A stretch of DNA of 64,000 nt, taken from positions 24,169 through 88,168 of the forward strand of contig JAACAK010000067.1 in NCBI GenBank assembly GCA_011774835.1, read 5' to 3'. Every line of letters starts with the position of its first letter. Position 1 is the stretch's first letter. The notes below the pieces were generated by a model. It saw only the letters and a program-made list of their open reading frames with translations. It did not search any database and was not told where the DNA came from. Position numbers and translations under genes: made by a program. The DNA comes from Candidatus Kutchimonas denitrificans. GTDB lineage: Bacteria; Gemmatimonadota; Gemmatimonadetes; Palauibacterales; KS3-K002. Below, piece after piece: positions 3,087 through 47,299 of the stretch.

Positions 3087-4742
3087 TTGACAGGAGCGTG
3101 GCTGAGGAGAGCTCTCCTGGCGGCCTGGCTGTTGGGGGCGGTTTTCGGCTGCGGGCCCGGGGGCACGTCGGCCGCCTTCGACGCGCTGTCGTCGGAGGCG
3201 ATCGGTGCCCACGTCTCGTTTCTGGCCAGCGACCTGCTGGAGGGCCGGGCCCCGAGCACGCAGGGCGAAAAGCTGGCGGCCCTGTACATCGCGTCGCAGT
3301 TCGAGCAGGCCGGTCTCATCCCGGCGGTGGGCGATTCGAGCTTCCTGCAGCCGGTCCCGCTGCTGGGGATCGAATCGGAGCTTCGCCTGTCGTTCCGGGC
3401 CCCTGGGGGAGCACTGTTCCAGCCGGAACGGAACGACGAGATCGTCCTCTGGTCGCCGCAGGTGTCCGAGAGCGTCCAGCTGACGGGCCCGCTCGTCTTT
3501 GCCGGTCATGGCATCGTGTCCGCCGAGCACGAGTGGGACGATTTCAAGGGCGTGGACCTCGAGGGTGCGGTCCTGATGGTACTGGCCGGCGATCCCGAGG
3601 TGCGCACCCGATTCCACGGTGACACACTCAGCCGCTTCGGCCTGCCCGACCACAAGTTCGAGGAAGCGGCGCGACGCGGCGCGGCGGGTGTGATCCTGAT
3701 CCACCGGCCCGAGCACCCGGAAAGCTGGCAGACGATCCAGCGCGCCTGGACCGAAAGACGGCTGCGGCTGGCCGAGGACAGCTTGAAACCGGTGCCGGCG
3801 CTGGAAGGTTGGCTGAGCCAGGACGCGGCGCGGCAGCTCGTTGCCATGGCCGGACTGGATTTCGGAACGCTGATCGAATCGGCGCAGGCGCCCACATTCC
3901 GACCGATCGCCACCGGGCTCAACGTATCCGCCAGTGGACGGAATCGGATCCGGCGGACGGTGGGATACAACGTCGTTGGCAAGCTCGCCGGGGTTGACTC
4001 GACCGCGGCCGCCTTGATATACCTCGCCCATTACGACGGCGAAGGGTACGGGCGGGCGATCGACTCCGATTCGATCTATAACGGGTGCTACCGAAACGCC
4101 TCCGGCACTGGCCTGCTGATCGGCCTGGCGCACGCCTTCGCCAGACTCCCGGAGCCGACCCGGCGCTCGATCCTCTTCCTGGCGGTGACCGCTCACCATC
4201 CCGACCGGCTCGGCTCCCGTCACTACGTGCGGCGTCCGGTTGTCTCATTGGCCGCCACAGCGGCGGCCATCAACATCGACGGGGCGAGCCTCTGGGGGCG
4301 CACCACCGACGTGGTCGTGCTGGGAACCGAGAGCTCGGACCTGGACGTGGCCGTGGCGCGAGTCGCAGCAGAAGAAGGTCTGCGCCGAGTGGGCGACCCG
4401 CTTCCCGAGCTCGGTCGCCTGTACCGCTCCGATCATCTCCCATTCATGCGGGCCGGGATCCCGGTGGCCTACGTGCAGCACGGCGTCGATTTCATCGGCC
4501 GCATGCCCGGCTGGGGTCGCCGGATGCTCCGGGATTACGGCCGCCACGTCGTTCGCAGCCCGGACGATGAGTGCACGGCGTCAACCGACTTCGGTGGCGC
4601 GGAAATCCAGGCGCGGCTGGCCTTCCGGCTCGGTCTGGAGGTGGCGAACCGCCGGGTGCGCCCCCGTTGGCACGCGGGCTCGGAATATCGTGCGGTGCAG
4701 GACTCGCTGTGGTCGGGTCAGGGCAGGGAGGCTGGGGAGTAG
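3087..4742 (+). CDS. M28-family zinc aminopeptidase with PA domain, probable lipoprotein
   Basis: Signal sequence with lipobox (LLGAVFGC). PA-domain region. M28 metal-binding region (…LAHYDG…, …NGCYRNASGTG…, …AVTAHHPDRLGSRHY…). Confidence 0.85.
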   Translation: MTGAWLRRALLAAWLLGAVFGCGPGGTSAAFDALSSEAIGAHVSFLASDLLEGRAPSTQGEKLAALYIASQFEQAGLIPAVGDSSFLQPVPLLGIESELRLSFRAPGGALFQPERNDEIVLWSPQVSESVQLTGPLVFAGHGIVSAEHEWDDFKGVDLEGAVLMVLAGDPEVRTRFHGDTLSRFGLPDHKFEEAARRGAAGVILIHRPEHPESWQTIQRAWTERRLRLAEDSLKPVPALEGWLSQDAARQLVAMAGLDFGTLIESAQAPTFRPIATGLNVSASGRNRIRRTVGYNVVGKLAGVDSTAAALIYLAHYDGEGYGRAIDSDSIYNGCYRNASGTGLLIGLAHAFARLPEPTRRSILFLAVTAHHPDRLGSRHYVRRPVVSLAATAAAINIDGASLWGRTTDVVVLGTESSDLDVAVARVAAEEGLRRVGDPLPELGRLYRSDHLPFMRAGIPVAYVQHGVDFIGRMPGWGRRMLRDYGRHVVRSPDDECTASTDFGGAEIQARLAFRLGLEVANRRVRPRWHAGSEYRAVQDSLWSGQGREAGE

Positions 4743-40023: not shown

Positions 40024-40584
40024 ATGAGAGCCGCCGCCGCAGCGATCGCGGGATTGCTCCTCGCCCTGGCCGCCTGCAGCGACAGCAACGAGGCGCCGCT
40101 GGTGGCCGAAGAGATCTTGCGGCTGAACGAGCGGGCGAACCGCGTCGCCATCGGACTCGAGCACTACGTGGCGTCCGAAGGCATCCGGCGCGCCAAGGTC
40201 GTTGCCGACACGGCGTTCTTCATCGAAGAAGAGTCGCTGATCGAGCTTCGGGACATGGAAGTGACCTTTTACGATGAGGACGGCAAGGAGACCACGTTTC
40301 TGACGGCACGCGAAGGCACGTACGATTGGGAGACCGGGAACATGACGGCCAGGCATGACGTGGTCGTCGTCAAGCGCGAGGAAGGGCGCCGGATAGAGAC
40401 TTCGGTCATGTACTACGAGCGACCGGAGGACCGGATCTGGAGCGATGTCCGGACCACGATGTACGAAGAGGATGGAACGATCGTCGAGGGGACGTCCTTC
40501 ACGTCCAATTCGGGGATGGACAGGGTCGAGCTGACGGAACCAAGCGTCATCCGACGCGGCAGCCAACCCCGGTCCGAAGAGTGA
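40024..40584 (+). CDS. lptC: LPS export system protein LptC (membrane-anchored/lipoprotein-like)
   Basis: ~185 aa with an N-terminal anchor (…LLLALAACSDS…). LptC/OstA-type β-jellyroll size and character. Conserved position kdsD-kdsC-lptC-lptA-lptB. Confidence 0.7.
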   Translation: MRAAAAAIAGLLLALAACSDSNEAPLVAEEILRLNERANRVAIGLEHYVASEGIRRAKVVADTAFFIEEESLIELRDMEVTFYDEDGKETTFLTAREGTYDWETGNMTARHDVVVVKREEGRRIETSVMYYERPEDRIWSDVRTTMYEEDGTIVEGTSFTSNSGMDRVELTEPSVIRRGSQPRSEE

Positions 40585-40585
40585 G

Positions 40586-42049
40586 ATGCGGACCGCGCTG
40601 CGAGCGGCGCTTCTCGCTGTGGCAACCCTCGAGCTGTTACCCGGGATCGGGCAGCAGCAGGAGCAGGATTGCGATCTGGAGGTACTCAGAACACCGGGAT
40701 CGAGAGGCGAGATGGTAACGCTGCCCGACGGCGAGGTACGGATCGATCAGTGGGGCGGCGTGGAAGCCGTCTGCGGCGATCGACGGCTGCGCGCCGACAG
40801 CGCCAGCTACTACCAGAACCGTGGCGTTCTCTTTCTGGTCGGTGACATGCGGTATGCAGACGACGAGCGGGAACTGGTGGCAGATCGAGGCACCTATTAC
40901 GAGCGCGAGGCGCGGATGCGGGCGGAAGGGAACGTCCGACTCACCGACGCCGATGGACGATCGACTTTGACGACGCAGCTGCTCGACTACTTCCCGGCAA
41001 ACGAGAACCGGCCGCGTGAGCGCATGTTCGCGCCGAGGCGACCGCACCTGACGTACTACCCGGAAACGACCACCGAACCGGACGCCCTGCCGTTCGAGGT
41101 GGACGCCGATCGACTCCACATATACGGGGACTCGGCGGTGGCCGGCGCCGGTCGCGTCGTCGCCATACGTGGCGACCTGGTCGCCCACGCCGATTCGATG
41201 GATCTCGACCTGGCGGGAGACCGCCTCTGGCTGCTCGGCGGCCCGCAGGTGACCTCGGACTCGATGGTCCTCTCGGGAGACACCATCCTCGTACTCATGC
41301 AGGAGCAGCAGATTCGCGAGATCGAGGCCTGGCCCGCGGGCTCGGCCACGAGCCGCGAGATGTCCCTGGAGGCCCCCTTGCTCCGCATGTTCGTCGAGGA
41401 CGACGAAGTGAATCGCCTCGTGGCGGCGCCGGGCGACCCGGCTCGTACCGGCGCGGAGGAAAGCCCGGAGCGGGACCCCTGGGCGGTCAGCGTGTCCACC
41501 GACTACAGGCTGGAGGCGGACTCCATCGATATTCAGCGGCCGGGCGGCGTGCTCGATCGGGTATTCGCCCTGCGGCGCGCCCGGGCCGAGAGCACCGAGG
41601 AGGTGATACCCGGCGGTGGTTTCCTGGCCCGCGACTGGCTGGAGGGAGACACGATCACGGGCTTCTTTACCGTCCGGGATTCCGGCAGCGCCAGCGGGGA
41701 CGCCGAGCTCACGCGACTGCGGGCGTCGGGGAACGCCCGCGCGCTTCATTACGTGCGGCAGGAAGACGCGGGCGACGGCCAACTTCCCGCCCCCAACTAC
41801 GTGAAGGGACGGGAGATCATTCTGGAGCTGGAGGACGGGGAGGTCCGCCAGGTCCGGGTCATCGGCCCGGCCCGGGGAGTCTATCTGGAGCCGATTCCAC
41901 CCTCACCCGACGATACGACGGGGCGCGATACGAGCGGCCTGTCGCTGCCGGACTCGATCCGGGAAGCGACGGAGGACACGACGCCCCCCGTCCCTCCCGA
42001 CACCGTTCCGCGCGATACCGTCCCCTCTGCGGGACCGGGAGGCCGGTAA
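40586..42049 (+). CDS. lptA: LptA/OstA-N-domain periplasmic protein, unusually long (487 aa) with a Pro/Thr-rich C-terminal tail
   Basis: Signal peptide. Repeated OstA-like segments (…[41 protein letters not shown]…). Positioned between lptC and lptB. Tail is …[23 protein letters not shown]. Confidence 0.65.
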
Positions 42050-42051
42050 CC

Positions 42052-43230
42052 GTGGAGAGCCTCGACCTTCGCAGCTTCGTCGTGGAGCTGCCGGCCCATG
42101 AAGCTCCGCTGCTCATCGCGTTGCGCGAGATCCTACTGCGCGCCGACGAGGCCGGCCGCATCGACAAAGGCCAGCTGGTCGAGGGCTTTCGCGAGTCGTA
42201 CCTGCTCCACTACGGCCGCGTGGCACAAGCCGGCTCACCCGAAAGCCGGCGGCTGTTCGAAATTCGACGCATGACGACCGAACAGGTCGACAGCTATTTG
42301 AGCGAGCAGATCCTCGCCCGCCTGGAGGCCGAGGGTCTGCTCGAGCAAAACGGCGATGAGCCCGGAGCCCGACTGGTCCTGTCACCCACGATCCGGAGCG
42401 ATGTGGGTCGGGACCGGACCGACATCCAGCAGCTGCTGGATCGGGAGATCGAAAAGCGGTTGCTCGCCCCCGAGGAGGAGCCGGAGCCCCGCCGGATCGT
42501 TCCCGATGGCAGTCGCATTGCGACCGATGGGCTGGTGAAGGTCTACAAGCGTCGGCGCGTCGTGGATGACGTCGACCTGAGCGTGAGGCAAGGCGAGATC
42601 GTGGGTCTCCTGGGACCCAATGGAGCCGGAAAGACCACGACGTTCTACATGATCGTGGGGCTCGTCGCACCCGACGCCGGCGAGGTCTTTATCGACCAGC
42701 GGCCCTTGTCGCACGTGCCGATGTACCGGCGAGCACGTCTCGGTATCGGTTACCTGTCACAGGAGCCATCGGTCTTCCGAAAGCTGACCGTAGAGGAGAA
42801 TATCGAGGCCATCCTGGAGACACTGTCCATTTCGGAAGAGGAGAAGTCCGAGCGGCTCGAATCGCTGCTCGACGAGCTGTCGATCAAGCACCTGAGAGAG
42901 AACCGAGCGTACTCGCTGTCGGGCGGTGAGCGGCGGCGCCTGGAGATCACACGCGCCCTGGTGACCGATCCCAAGTTCATGCTCCTCGACGAGCCGTTCG
43001 CCGGCGTCGACCCCATCGCGGTGGATGATATCCAGCGCATCGTGGCCGACCTGAAGCATCGCGGCCTGGGCGTGCTGATCACCGATCACAACGTACGTGA
43101 GACACTTTCGATCACGGACCGTGCCTATATCATGTTCGATGGGAAAATCCACATCGAGGGCACGTCCGAGGAACTGGTTAACGATCCGCAGGCGCGTAAG
43201 TTATATTTAGGTGAGGATTTTCGCCTGTAG
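42052..43230 (+). CDS. lptB: LPS export ABC transporter ATPase LptB with a ~150-aa N-terminal extension
   Basis: C-terminal 240 aa align with LptB (…[34 protein letters not shown]…[11 protein letters not shown]…[11 protein letters not shown]…). No in-frame ATG/GTG/TTG is available near the canonical LptB N-terminus, so the upstream 150 codons are read as part of the protein. Confidence 0.8.
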
Positions 43231-43245: not shown

Positions 43246-44685
43246 ATGAAAGTCGGCCTACAACAAAGCGTTAAACTCGGGCAGGAGCTGAGGATCAATC
43301 CACGCCTGTACCAGGCGATGGACCTGCTGTATATGCCGCTTCTCGATCTGCAGCAGCATCTCAAGCAGGAGCTGGTCCAGAACCCATTCCTCGAGATGGT
43401 GGAGCCCAGCGAGGATCCTGCCCTGGAAGAGAACGCCGAGGAGACCAAGGAGGACGAGAACGAGGTCGATTGGGAGGACATATTGCTCGACGGCCTCGAT
43501 GGCGGCGGTCGGCGCGAGGAATACGAGGAGAAGGAGTACTACGAGCCTACCGCGGTGGCGACGCGCGACCTGTACGATCACCTTCACGACCAGATCGCAC
43601 TGCTTCGGCTCGAGCCCCGCCAGGTGATGGTCGCGGAAGAGATCATCGGGAACATCGACGAGACCGGCTTCCTGACCTGTCCGTTGGAGCAGGTCGTCGA
43701 ATCACTCAACAACTTCCTGGACAGCGAAGAGGCGCGAAACGCGGGGTTCGGGGAGGAGCCTGTGTTCACGGTGGAAGAAGTCGAGGAGGTTCTGAAGATC
43801 ATACAGAACCTCGATCCCGCCGGGATCGCCGCGCGAAATCTCAGGGAGTGCCTGCTGCTCCAGTTGCGCGAGGCCGAGCTGGAAGACGGGGTCGTGTTCG
43901 ACATCGTGGACAAGCACTTCGACCAGCTGGTCAATCACCGCTGGGCGGAGATCTCGAAGGAGCTGGGTGTCAGTCCGCAGGAGGTACAGGCGGCGGCCGA
44001 CGAGATCGCGAAGCTGGACCCGAAGCCGGGCCTGCAGTATTCGAGCGGCGAGGGCAACTACATCATACCGGACCTGGTGGTGGAGAAGGTCGGTAGCGAG
44101 TACATCGTGTTCCACAACGACACGGTCTTGCCACGACTTCGCCTGTCGCGTTCGTACCGAGAGGTGGCGAGAGACAAGTCGAAGTTCAAAGGCGAGAACA
44201 AGGAGTTCATCTCCAACAAGCTCAACAACGCCAACTGGATGCTCCAGGCGATCGAGCAGCGGCGTCAGACGATGCTGAAGGTCATGAACTTCATCGTGGA
44301 CCGGCAGCGCGACTTCTTCGAGGAGGGCGTCGAGCACCTGAAGCCCCTGACCCTGCGCGAGGTCGCCGAGGTCATCAACATGCACGAGTCCACGGTCTCG
44401 CGGGTGACGAACCAGAAGTACGTGCAGACGCCGCGCGGCGTTCTTCCGCTCAAGTTCTTCTTCTCCAGCGGTCTTTCCACCGACTCCGGTGAGGACGTCT
44501 CGGCACGCGGCATCAAGGCGCGGATCGAGAAGCTGGTGGATGAGGAGGACACGAAGAAGCCCCTCACGGATCAGGCGATCGTGGACATCCTGAAGCGAGA
44601 GGGAATCAACATCGCGCGCCGCACCGTAGCGAAGTACCGCGACCAGCTGGGTATCCTTTCAGCTCGCATGCGCAAGCGAGTATGA
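43246..44685 (+). CDS. rpoN: RNA polymerase sigma-54 factor
   Basis: Gln/Leu-rich region I, acidic region II, and the C-terminal HTH plus RpoN box (…ARRTVAKYR…). Confidence 0.92.
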   Translation: MKVGLQQSVKLGQELRINPRLYQAMDLLYMPLLDLQQHLKQELVQNPFLEMVEPSEDPALEENAEETKEDENEVDWEDILLDGLDGGGRREEYEEKEYYEPTAVATRDLYDHLHDQIALLRLEPRQVMVAEEIIGNIDETGFLTCPLEQVVESLNNFLDSEEARNAGFGEEPVFTVEEVEEVLKIIQNLDPAGIAARNLRECLLLQLREAELEDGVVFDIVDKHFDQLVNHRWAEISKELGVSPQEVQAAADEIAKLDPKPGLQYSSGEGNYIIPDLVVEKVGSEYIVFHNDTVLPRLRLSRSYREVARDKSKFKGENKEFISNKLNNANWMLQAIEQRRQTMLKVMNFIVDRQRDFFEEGVEHLKPLTLREVAEVINMHESTVSRVTNQKYVQTPRGVLPLKFFFSSGLSTDSGEDVSARGIKARIEKLVDEEDTKKPLTDQAIVDILKREGINIARRTVAKYRDQLGILSARMRKRV

Positions 44686-45668
44686 GTCGCGCCATCGCTA
44701 CCCACGAAGAGGCGCCCGCCAAGGTGGAGGTCGACGCGGAGCTCGCCGACAACTTTTCCGTCGTTATTCCCGCCTTCAACGAAAGCGACAACATCCCCGA
44801 GCTATTCCGGGAGATCGAGGCGACCTTCCGCGAGCACGGGCTGGACGGAGAGGTCATCCTGGTAGACGATGGATCGAGCGACGACTCGAGCGAACTGGCG
44901 CGCCGCGAGGGAGCCCGGTTTCGCCGCTTCAAGCTCGAGCGCCACAAGCGGAATCTGGGCAAGACGGAAGCGTTGCTCACCGGGGCCCGGGCGGCGACGA
45001 CGGACTGGCTGGTCCTGTTCGATGCGGATCTGCAGCACAGCCCGGGCGAGATCCCGCGGCTCCTGGCCGAGGCGGCGAAAGGCTACGATATCGTCTGCGG
45101 CCGCAAGGTGGGCAAGTACGAGAAGCGGTTGGTCTCCGGCATCTACAACTGGATGTCGCGCAAAGCGTTCCGCGTACCCGCGCGCGATCTCAACTCGATC
45201 AAGATCTTCCGCACCCGGGTCCTCGATGACGTACAGCTGCGGCACGATTGGCACCGATTCTTCGTGGTGCTGGCTCACGCTAAGGGCTACAAGGTCGGCG
45301 AGCTCGACGTGACCCTGCATCCTCGGCGAAGAGGGGAAACGAAATACGGCGGTTCGAGCCGCGTTTTCGTCGGCCTGCTCGACCTCGTGTCCGTCTGGTT
45401 CCTGCTGATCTTCAGCCGCAAGCCGATGCTCCTGTTCGGGTTCACCGGTCTGTTGCTGGTGGGGCTCGGGCTGTTGGTGGGGATCACAGCGATCGTTCTG
45501 CGGTTGCTGGGTCACGGCTTCCGGCCGCTGCTCACGCTGGTCGTGCTGTTGGGGATCATGGGTGTGTCGCTGTTCGGCTTCGGCTTCGTCGCCGAGCTGA
45601 TCGCGACGTTGCGGGCCGAGGTGGATGATCTGAGGGAATCGCTGCGGGAGAGCCGGAAGGACAGCTAG
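44682..45668 (+). CDS. GT2-family polyprenyl-phosphate glycosyltransferase (GtrB/ArnC/DPM1-like) with C-terminal TM helices
   Basis: …SVVIPAFNESDNI…VDDGSSDDS…DADLQHSP… GT-A DxD architecture and two C-terminal TM helices. Start forms an ATGA overlap with the rpoN stop. Confidence 0.85.
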   Translation: MSRAIATHEEAPAKVEVDAELADNFSVVIPAFNESDNIPELFREIEATFREHGLDGEVILVDDGSSDDSSELARREGARFRRFKLERHKRNLGKTEALLTGARAATTDWLVLFDADLQHSPGEIPRLLAEAAKGYDIVCGRKVGKYEKRLVSGIYNWMSRKAFRVPARDLNSIKIFRTRVLDDVQLRHDWHRFFVVLAHAKGYKVGELDVTLHPRRRGETKYGGSSRVFVGLLDLVSVWFLLIFSRKPMLLFGFTGLLLVGLGLLVGITAIVLRLLGHGFRPLLTLVVLLGIMGVSLFGFGFVAELIATLRAEVDDLRESLRESRKDS

Positions 45669-45682
45669 CAGGTGGAGGAAGG

Positions 45683-47299
45683 GTGGGGGAATCTGTGGCC
45701 GCGGAAGGTCGAGACAGGCGCAGGCTGACCGGACCTCGGGCGACCTGGGGAATTCTCGCCGTTATCGTGGCGGCCCATGTGAGCGTCGCCGCGTTCGTCT
45801 TCGATCCCAAACCGTTCGTCGGCGGAGACAACGCCGGGTACCTGATCCTGGCGGAATCGATCCAGACGGGGCAGGGCTATCGTGACCTCCACCTGCCCGG
45901 TACTCCGCGTCATGCGACAAGTCCGCCCCTCTATCCCCTCGTTCTGGCCCTGGCGCGCGGGGTGGGGAGCGGGCTGCTGGGCTTCAAGGCGCTCTCCATC
46001 GTGTTTACGGCGCTTTCCGTCATACTGCTCTACTTCCTGGCGCGACGTCGGCTGGGCGCGACGGCAAGCCTGGCCGTCGCCGCCGCCTTCGCCATCAATC
46101 CGGTCCTGCTCTATTACTCGCACTGGACGCTGCCCGAACCCCTTTTCGTGCTCCTGGCCCTGGCCGCCCTCTGGTCGGCGGAGACCTCCCGGCTGCTGGG
46201 CAGGTCGGAGGAGTCGACGGATTCCGGCGTGCGACTGGCCTGGGCCGCAGGTGCCGCCGCCCTCGCCAGCCTGGCGTATCTGACCCGTGGGGGAGCGATT
46301 CCGTTAGTCCTCGCCATCCTGATCGTACTGGGGTGGCGCCGCCGTTGGCGCGCGTTGGCAGCCAGCACAATCGTCGCCGCCCTGGCGGTCGGCGGTTGGC
46401 AGGCCTGGCGGGCGCTGGCGGTGCCGCGAGAAGCCGCGGCATCCGGCGCACACCTGCTGTCGGACCCCGCGAACCCGGACAGGCTGGCGGGCCCGGGCGA
46501 GCTGGTCACACGCTTCATCGACAGCGTCCGTGTCTACCTGGTCGACCTGACCCCCCAATCGATCGCGGGGGTGCCCGTGGGAGGTGGCGTCAACCCGCTG
46601 GCCCTCATGTGCGGCCTACTGGTGATCGCGCTGGCCCTGGTGGCGTGGATCCGCGAAGTGCGGCGCGTGCGCCCGGTGGAGTTCTACGCGGCTCTCTACG
46701 CGCTCTGGTTGTTCCTGTGGCCCTGGAACGAGCGCCGCCTGCTTCTGGCTCTGCTACCCGTTCTGTACCTGCTGGCGGCGCAGGGGCTGCTCTGGTGCCT
46801 CGATTTCGCACGTTTCAAGAGCCACGCGTGGGCGGTACCGGCTTTCGCAGCGCTTCTCGTTATGGTGGGTGTTCCCCATCATGTCCGGGCGCTGAGCTTC
46901 GCCGCCGACTGCCGCCGGCTATATCGAGAAGGGGACCGCCTGGCCTGCTATCCTCCGCCGTGGCGCGGCTTCTTCCAAGCCGCGGCATGGGCGCGGGCGA
47001 ACACACCCGAAGGATCGACGATCGTCAGCCCGGAGCCGCGATTGTTCTATCTCGTTTCCGACCGCCAGGGGGACGAGTATCCCCCCACGGCCGACACGGA
47101 CTCGATGCTCGCCTTTCTCGATTCGGTCTCTGCCGACTACGTTGTGGTCGCCGCGGTAAGCCCCACGACCTTCCGGTACCTCGTACCCGTGTTGCGCGCC
47201 ATGCCCGAGAGGTTCGAACCGGTTCACGCGGAAGGCGAAGGCACCTCGGCCGCCTATCTCGTCGCGTATTTGACCGCCCGGCCGCAGGAGAGTCCCTGA
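45683..47299 (+). CDS. GT-C superfamily membrane glycosyltransferase (ArnT/PMT-like), paralogue 1
   Basis: ~11 predicted TM helices with an acidic first-loop motif (…FDPKPFVGGDNAGY…) and a C-terminal soluble domain. Clear paralogue of 53869..55443. Confidence 0.75.
   Translation: MGESVAAEGRDRRRLTGPRATWGILAVIVAAHVSVAAFVFDPKPFVGGDNAGYLILAESIQTGQGYRDLHLPGTPRHATSPPLYPLVLALARGVGSGLLGFKALSIVFTALSVILLYFLARRRLGATASLAVAAAFAINPVLLYYSHWTLPEPLFVLLALAALWSAETSRLLGRSEESTDSGVRLAWAAGAAALASLAYLTRGGAIPLVLAILIVLGWRRRWRALAASTIVAALAVGGWQAWRALAVPREAAASGAHLLSDPANPDRLAGPGELVTRFIDSVRVYLVDLTPQSIAGVPVGGGVNPLALMCGLLVIALALVAWIREVRRVRPVEFYAALYALWLFLWPWNERRLLLALLPVLYLLAAQGLLWCLDFARFKSHAWAVPAFAALLVMVGVPHHVRALSFAADCRRLYREGDRLACYPPPWRGFFQAAAWARANTPEGSTIVSPEPRLFYLVSDRQGDEYPPTADTDSMLAFLDSVSADYVVVAAVSPTTFRYLVPVLRAMPERFEPVHAEGEGTSAAYLVAYLTARPQESP

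Follow-up and report, generated by a model that had tools for sequence, protein, structure and literature searches.

LptB drives the essential machine that exports lipopolysaccharide (LPS), which has been studied intensively and is a drug target. In the 64,000-nucleotide (nt) stretch of Candidatus Kutchimonas denitrificans DNA analyzed here (contig JAACAK010000067.1; hereafter the window), the lptB gene lies in a reading frame that stays open for approximately 150 codons upstream of the region corresponding to the canonical LptB start. The question raised by this locus is what these codons represent, i.e., a domain fused to the ATPase, a separate small gene or leader, untranslated sequence ahead of a later start, or the product of a frameshift in the assembly. 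We describe an accessory domain, present phylum-wide and not described before, on an otherwise familiar motor protein. Our literature searches found no report of an N-terminal extension or domain of LptB, of a winged helix in this protein, or of LptB features specific to the Gemmatimonadota.

The extension and the LptB core share one reading frame

The long lptB gene is a single open reading frame (ORF) that starts at a GTG codon and encodes 392 amino acids (aa), and a gene call of this length (P0258) also exists from the same NCBI genome. Residues 155-392 are unambiguously a bona fide LptB. The NCBIfam equivalog model TIGR04406 (LPS_export_lptB; cutoff 240 bits) matches residues 157-392 over its positions 3-239 of 239 with 374.6 bits. 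This puts the beginning of canonical LptB at about residue 155 and leaves about 154 residues extra. This agrees with the first-pass annotation of the DNA, which had described an LptB with an N-terminal extension of about 150 residues in an open frame; the extension sequence that it quoted and the codons ATC-GTT-CCC-GAT (42496-42507) are also correct. The Pfam ABC_tran match spans residues 172-317. ATPase motifs comprise the A-loop Tyr165 (42544-42546), the Walker A motif GPNGAGKT (188-195), the Q-loop Gln237, the signature LSGGE (289-293), the Walker B motif with the catalytic glutamate (LLDE, 311-314), and the H-loop His346, all of which are invariant in an 81-sequence alignment. The protein ends in the canonical LptB C-terminus, ...YLGEDFRL. 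In Foldseek comparisons, the AlphaFold2 model of the core matched solved LptB structures from E. coli, Vibrio, Enterobacter, Acinetobacter and related species with E values of 1e-25 to 1e-29, template modeling (TM) scores (TMt) of 0.89-0.94, 55-59% identity, and a root-mean-square deviation (rmsd) of about 2 A (1.6-2.7 A).

We compared the gene with 33 related loci from metagenomes and one-genome-per-species bacterial assemblies, 32 of which were informative in that both parts were present. The contigs were scanned with a DNA pattern derived from a 9-sequence alignment; patterns built from two sequences found nothing and the 32-sequence alignment was too diverse. Extension and core were in the same frame, with no stop codon between them, in 30 of the 32 informative loci (29 of 31, together with L033), all of them from Gemmatimonadota. 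The comparison with orthologues from relatives that the first-pass annotation had suggested thus revealed a shared extension. The loci contain 26 distinct extension sequences, and identity in the extension is 47-66%.

Protein searches extended this picture. With the full-length protein as query, 90 of the 120 best clusters (at 90% identity) had lengths of 386-406 aa and query coverages of 97-100%. A second search started from a divergent member and listed 120 clusters with lengths of 379-413 aa; more than 110 of these were new compared to the first list. The fused architecture therefore occurs in approximately 200 protein clusters (379-413 aa; 90% identity). A word-indexed homology search with the extension alone returned a single protein, a result that is misleading given that the full-length query and the DNA-pattern scan pointed to homologues in the hundreds.

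A 150-codon open frame is unremarkable at a G+C (GC) content of 65.7%, and it is conservation and substitution patterns, rather than the length of the frame, that place the extension beyond chance. Ratios of nonsynonymous to synonymous substitution rates (dN/dS), calculated by the Nei-Gojobori method for close pairs, were 0.13-0.28 in the extension compared to 0.02-0.06 in the ATPase core; the extension evolves approximately five times faster than the core. Residues 2-73 taken alone gave a dN/dS of about 0.20. The GC contents of the extension at codon positions 1, 2 and 3 (0.76/0.41/0.81) resemble those of neighboring genes. The purifying dN/dS values, including that of residues 2-73, indicate that translation runs in this frame from the 5' end of the extension onward and that selection maintains the extension. 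On these sequence grounds, the locus almost certainly encodes a real, conserved and translated fusion. The first-pass annotation had regarded an extra regulatory domain on LptB as unusual; the presence of the domain in these loci and clusters, under purifying selection, bears this out, while the regulatory part is one that we infer.

Among the 19 loci derived from genomes, 18 carry Gemmatimonadota or Gemmatimonadales in their titles, and one is titled only 'uncultured bacterium'. The divergent subfamily includes a Longimicrobiales metagenome-assembled genome (MAG) and soil 'GEM' bins. The organism of the window is a member of Candidatus Palauibacterales. As far as this sequence sampling reaches, the long LptB architecture is ancestral to, and kept across, a large part of the Gemmatimonadota.

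The extension is predicted to fold as a winged helix

We modeled the extension alone with AlphaFold2 from the 32-sequence alignment. The resulting model had a predicted local distance difference test score (pLDDT) of 91.7 and a predicted TM score (pTM) of 0.84. It contains a short helix (residues 6-11), alpha1 (18-30), beta1 (36-38), alpha2 (39-57), an inserted helix (63-73), alpha3 (76-93), a hairpin of beta2 (97-99) and beta3 (107-110), and a long helix (112-138). The extension is thus confidently predicted to adopt a winged-helix topology with flanking helices. Structure prediction was among the checks proposed in the first-pass annotation, which had described the extension as helical and charged with no recognizable family; the extension is not merely helical and charged, given the confident winged-helix-type fold predicted for it, but the lack of a sequence family stood up, as detailed below. 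Comparison of the model with the PDB gave weak matches. Apart from a ribosomal protein at rank 18 and a spliceosome chain at rank 39, the top 50 structural neighbors were all winged-helix proteins, including Cdc6, MukE, ROQ, MarR, ArsR, TubR, Sso10a and kleisin.

Four residues of the domain are invariant (L13, G35, Y82 and R90) and several others nearly so (A23, L83, L91, R122 and, usually, W115). At position 115 (42394-42396), early in the long helix, the protein of the window has Arg, where 88% of the family, including the closest relative (P0002), has Trp. The linker that follows the long helix is rich in Ala (19%), Pro (17%) and Glu (11%), and is 8-21 residues long across the family, varying by whole codons. 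In the full-length AlphaFold2 model (pLDDT 85.0; pTM 0.78), pLDDT falls below 50 at residues 142-147 of the linker.

Searches with the extension alone or with the 32-sequence profile gave no significant or consistent match in Pfam, NCBIfam, PADLOC or PDB sequences, and no curated family was found to hold the extension. The best PDB sequence match, a dGTPase (E 0.046 over 35 residues), was treated as chance. Pfam matches of single members to JetA (1.5e-4), DUF4194 and MarR_2 did not recur in other members and were disregarded; MarR_2 reached 16.9 bits against a gathering threshold of 27, and HTH_27 13.8 against 22.2, each in one of the 32 members.

A profile of the extension had 138 matches among 1.84 billion representative proteins. 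We sampled 20 of these: 15 combined the extension with ABC_tran (LptB), often ending at contig ends, three were short proteins without a Pfam domain, and two had other architectures, i.e., a McrB-like protein (P0252; MrcB_N and AAA_5) and a 1339-aa TIR-domain protein (P0202). Profile alignment with hhalign related the extension to residues 156-281 of P0252 and residues 348-458 of P0202 at 96% probability (E 4e-9 and 6e-9, respectively) over 111-125 columns. Structural searches of predicted viral proteins (BFVD) with Foldseek found, each with a probability of 1.00, a DUF262 protein (A0A8S5PWA5; TMq 0.65, rmsd 3.4 A) and an AAA ATPase (A0A8S5PWP8; TMq 0.62, rmsd 3.2 A) from the same phage-like contig. 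These matches are better than those to the PDB and are in keeping with the sequence relationship to McrB-like proteins. The same type of domain appears to be an uncharacterized module of defense-type enzymes, and the extension defines an uncharacterized winged-helix-like domain family that is also present in defense nucleoside triphosphatases (NTPases).

Such a fold raises the possibility that the extension binds DNA, in which case LptB would be both an ATPase and a transcription regulator and might, for example, autoregulate the kds-lpt-rpoN cluster. The predicted topology fits this proposal, as do the DNA binders among the structural neighbors (MarR, ArsR, TubR and Sso10a), the weak Pfam hints of MarR_2, HTH_27 and SelB-wing at residues 70-107, and the remote relatives found in restriction-type proteins with DNA as their target (McrB-like and DUF262). 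However, the domain is acidic, with a median isoelectric point (pI) of 4.9 and median net charges of -2 for both the 'recognition helix' (residues 76-93) and the wing (94-111). Moreover, the MarR_2 score is far below threshold and confined to one member, and LptB2FG keeps the subunit at the membrane, where it would be poorly placed to reach a chromosomal operator. We therefore consider a DNA-binding function improbable.

Translation is predicted to begin at the upstream GTG codon

The start of the extension abuts or overlaps the lptA stop codon in all loci. An ATGA overlap is present in 29 of 31 loci, in which the start codon shares letters with an out-of-frame TGA at the point where the lptA-like gene ends; gene calls for L033 identify the overlapped TGA as the lptA stop. 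A purine-rich motif precedes the equivalent start in 31 of 31 loci, as judged with a permissive pattern; in the window, a Shine-Dalgarno-like sequence lies 9 nt upstream of the GTG (Table 1).

An internal start would divide the locus into two proteins, with the upstream 150 codons being a separate small gene or leader and LptB being initiated near residues 156-162, at ATT 42517 or GTG 42535. The first-pass annotation had found no in-frame ATG, GTG or TTG near the canonical start. This holds for the canonical position itself, which is ATT, but a GTG (42535; V162) lies six codons after it and a TTG (42460; L137) 19 codons before it. Internal initiation might draw on the GTG and the ATT, on the annotation of some relatives by NCBI as 237 aa, and on the occurrence of the two parts in different frames in L001 and L031. 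Nevertheless, no Shine-Dalgarno motif precedes 42460, 42517 or 42535, none of these three codons is conserved in relatives, and a start at the GTG of V162 would cost most of the first ATPase beta-strand. Val162 is encoded by GTG in 14 loci and by GTC in 13. No conserved internal start exists at the canonical LptB position across the related loci: the codon there is usually not a start codon (CTG in 14, CTC in five, CTA in two, ATC in two, ATG in two, GTC in one and ATT in one, with CTT also seen), and four loci lack any ATG, GTG or TTG from 25 codons before to two codons after this position. A 237-aa NCBI call on L020 (P0079) starts at a CTG (3445) within the long ORF and reflects a choice of annotation rather than evidence for a start. 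Two separate genes would also be hard to reconcile with the lack of a stop codon between the parts in nearly all informative loci, at the level of sequence divergence seen among the extensions. The codons at the junction lead us to reject internal initiation, including the non-canonical start near residue 150 that the first-pass annotation had raised as a possible refutation, and two proteins are very unlikely.

A start at Met74 would instead leave an extension of 82 residues, with residues 1-73 untranslated. This ATG lies in a nearly invariant EIRRM motif, is always present, and is the start used by NCBI both for the gene in the window (P0003; 100% identical, 319 aa) and, at the equivalent ATG (3208), for L023; NCBI calls of 316 aa use the same Met. 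Yet residues 2-73 show the purifying dN/dS reported above and include the invariant L13 and G35. These residues are also modeled, at pLDDT 94-98, as alpha1, beta1 and alpha2 of the same compact domain, and Met74 falls mid-domain. The position of the upstream start at the lptA stop in every locus also argues against a start at Met74, which would leave approximately 220 nt of conserved sequence without a coding role among genes that are otherwise closely spaced. The chance that Met74 is the true start is slimmer still, and the NCBI annotation is most likely mis-called.

The weakest alternative, that a frameshift or indel falsely fused an upstream ORF to lptB, a fault that the first-pass annotation had envisaged and that the MAG origin of the DNA and the frame disruptions in this region of two related contigs might suggest, is scarcely credible and effectively refuted, since the same in-frame architecture occurs in independent assemblies from many samples, including three MAG 'chromosome' records of 3.0-4.7 Mb (CP070823, CP070722 and CP070815) and a 5.4-Mb contig, and has a linker whose length changes by whole codons.

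We favor translation of all 392 residues as a fusion. JGI and other callers mostly give approximately 391-394 aa, and because of the shortened calls, the N-terminal domain is largely missing from NCBI-annotated records. The annotation problem is systematic: depending on the record, this gene is given 237, 316-319 or approximately 392 aa.

Proposed role of the accessory domain

The locus probably encodes a single 392-residue protein in which an accessory domain of about 138 residues, a flexible linker of about 16 residues and a full LptB are joined, with the domain acting as an interaction or regulatory module. The last element, taken alone, is more tentative: a regulatory or interaction function within the transporter is a reasonable proposal that we would rate somewhat below an even chance.

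In LptB structures, the aromatic residue of the A-loop stacks on the adenine of ATP, and LptB functions as a dimer. The linker meets the ATPase some 10 residues ahead of Tyr165, which would tether the domain near the nucleotide site and the dimer interface, on the side that faces the cytoplasm and points away from LptF and LptG. In MarR proteins, flanking helices form the dimer interface. The acidic surface of the domain, its MarR-like flanking helices and the dimeric state of LptB favor a role in protein-protein contacts over DNA binding. We propose that the domain may serve as a cytoplasmic protein-protein interaction or regulatory module rather than as a DNA binder. The two LptB subunits of LptB2FG might be paired via the flanking helices, by analogy with winged-helix dimers of the MarR type. 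Alternatively, the domain could bind a partner or the ATPase itself, thereby tuning ATP binding or dimer closure. The pTM of 0.78 for the full-length model, compared to the approximately 0.6 that we would expect for independently placed domains, hints at a docked arrangement of the domain in this model.

The lptC homologue of the window encodes a lipoprotein-type signal peptide (...LLLALAAC/SD...), and the lipobox cysteine was present in every readable homologue of the related loci (L001, L004, L009, L011, L014-L017, L021-L023, L025-L027, L032 and L033). LptC here thus appears from its sequence to be lipid-anchored and, as a predicted lipoprotein, to lack the transmembrane helix. Elsewhere, the transmembrane helix of LptC is reported to intercalate into LptFG and to lower the ATPase activity of LptB2FG in vitro, and few LptC sequences are reported to be predicted lipoproteins (PMC9544173). 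We speculate that the domain could supply control that is obtained elsewhere from the LptC helix. In a more specific version, which we regard as unlikely, the domain would dimerize beneath LptB2 or dock by the ATP site and gate ATP binding or closure on a cytoplasmic signal or partner, replacing the restraint and coupling role that the LptC helix plays in Proteobacteria. If true, this would be a new form of control over LPS export and would give a first access to the function of a domain family that McrB, GmrSD and TIR defense proteins also contain.

Several observations weigh against the reading of the extension as a maintained winged-helix module that controls the transporter. In L001 (about 3750-3800) and L031 (about 597-617), a deletion of approximately 25-35 codons and a change of frame fall within the extension, leaving the LptB core intact; these disruptions may be assembly errors or lineage-specific losses, and the domain may in the latter case be dispensable. 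Foldseek matches of the extension to PDB structures are weak (best E 0.056; TM 0.35-0.43). Lastly, the link between long LptB and lipoprotein-type LptC is suggestive, being a co-occurrence within one phylum rather than a correlation across phyla.

Genomic context

Long lptB is part of a tightly packed operon comprising kdsC, kdsD, lptC, the lptA-like gene, lptB and rpoN, followed by a gene for a GT2 glycosyltransferase. The order from kdsC to rpoN is present in the window, L001 and L033. Coordinates of the gene, its parts and its neighbors are listed in Table 1.

The LptA/OstA-like protein has a Pro/Thr/Asp-rich C-terminal tail, and its Pfam match to LptD_N is weak. Its relatives have 472-496 aa, and the L033 homologue has 601 aa according to its gene call; E. 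coli LptA has approximately 185 aa. The long LptB therefore coincides with two other departures in the operon, i.e., lipoprotein-type LptC and an LptA-like protein of 470-600 aa.

The GT2 glycosyltransferase gene (44682-45668, + strand) shares 4 nt with the end of rpoN, and the order of rpoN followed by GT2 is also kept in relatives; it stands in the place of hpf and ptsN, the genes after rpoN in E. coli. It is followed by a large ORF (45683-47299, + strand) for an apparently multi-pass membrane protein of 538 aa. No tRNA genes, and no Rfam families at the gathering threshold, were found across the 64-kb window.

Table 1. Coordinates of the long lptB gene, its predicted parts and neighboring features, as positions in the window.
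Feature	Position	Strand	Description
lptC homologue	40024..40584	+	186 aa; Pfam LptC; lipoprotein-type signal peptide with lipobox L-A-A-C
lptA/OstA-like gene	40586..42049	+	487 aa; TAA stop at 42047-42049, 2 nt before the long lptB start; Pfam LptD_N
Shine-Dalgarno-like GGGAGG	42037..42042	+	9 nt upstream of GTG 42052; within the 3' end of the lptA-like gene
Long lptB	42052..43230	+	GTG start, 392 aa and TAG stop; N-terminal accessory domain, linker and LptB ATPase in a single reading frame
Winged-helix-like core (predicted)	42052..42381	+	Residues 1-110; AlphaFold2 model and alignments
ATG of Met74	42271..42273	+	Start in the public NCBI annotation (319 aa); mid-domain
Long C-terminal helix (predicted)	42385..42465	+	Residues 112-138 (27 residues); near-invariant R122
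Linker	42466..42513	+	Residues 139-154; Ala/Pro/Glu-rich, predicted disordered
Canonical LptB nucleotide-binding domain	42514..43227	+	Residues 155-392; TIGR04406
ATT (Ile156)	42517..42519	+	Equivalent of the canonical LptB N-terminus; start codon not conserved
rpoN (sigma-54)	43246..44685	+	Pfam Sigma54_AID, Sigma54_CBD and Sigma54_DBD; directly downstream of lptB

Comparison with known systems

The best remote likenesses of the extension are those to the McrB-like protein P0252, the TIR protein P0202, and the viral DUF262 and AAA proteins, three of which carry an NTPase or nuclease module alongside. Identity to these defense-type proteins is only 13-24%, four such proteins were seen, and their hosts are restriction or defense enzymes in contrast to a transporter.

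With winged-helix proteins in general, i.e., the MarR family, ArsR/SqrR, TubR, MukE, kleisin, Cdc6/Orc and ROQ, the extension has in common the predicted alpha1-beta1-alpha2-alpha3-beta2-beta3 topology with flanking helices. It differs from them in an extra helix between alpha2 and alpha3 and in a surface that is acidic rather than basic; similarity to them is weak and Pfam scores are below threshold.

Soluble domains fused to the nucleotide-binding subunit of an ATP-binding cassette (ABC) transporter have precedents. MalK, MetN, ModC, CysA and GlcV have C-terminal domains, and Wzt has a C-terminal carbohydrate-binding domain, which regulate the ATPase or recognize cargo or partners. MalK, CysA and GlcV are also found as longer structural neighbors of the LptB core. 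Long LptB shares with these proteins the fusion of a soluble domain to the ABC subunit; however, their appended domains are C-terminal and beta-rich, whereas the extension is N-terminal, winged-helix-like by prediction and unrelated in sequence, and its regulatory role is one that we infer.

Compared to canonical LptB (E. coli YhbG/LptB, 241 aa; PDB 4P31, 4QC2 and 6MBN; LptB2FG(C) structures 5X5Y, 6MIT and 6S8G), the long protein has the same core and motifs, and its gene lies in the same lptC-lptA-lptB-rpoN order; the classical lptB-rpoN arrangement is kept, with rpoN immediately 3' of long lptB. A phylum-wide domain beside the ATP site of this motor points to a level of control, or to a partner, that model organisms are not known to have. 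The matched LptB structures, of 226-257 residues, align to the ATPase part alone, to which long LptB adds 154 N-terminal residues that are predicted to form an independently folded domain and a linker.

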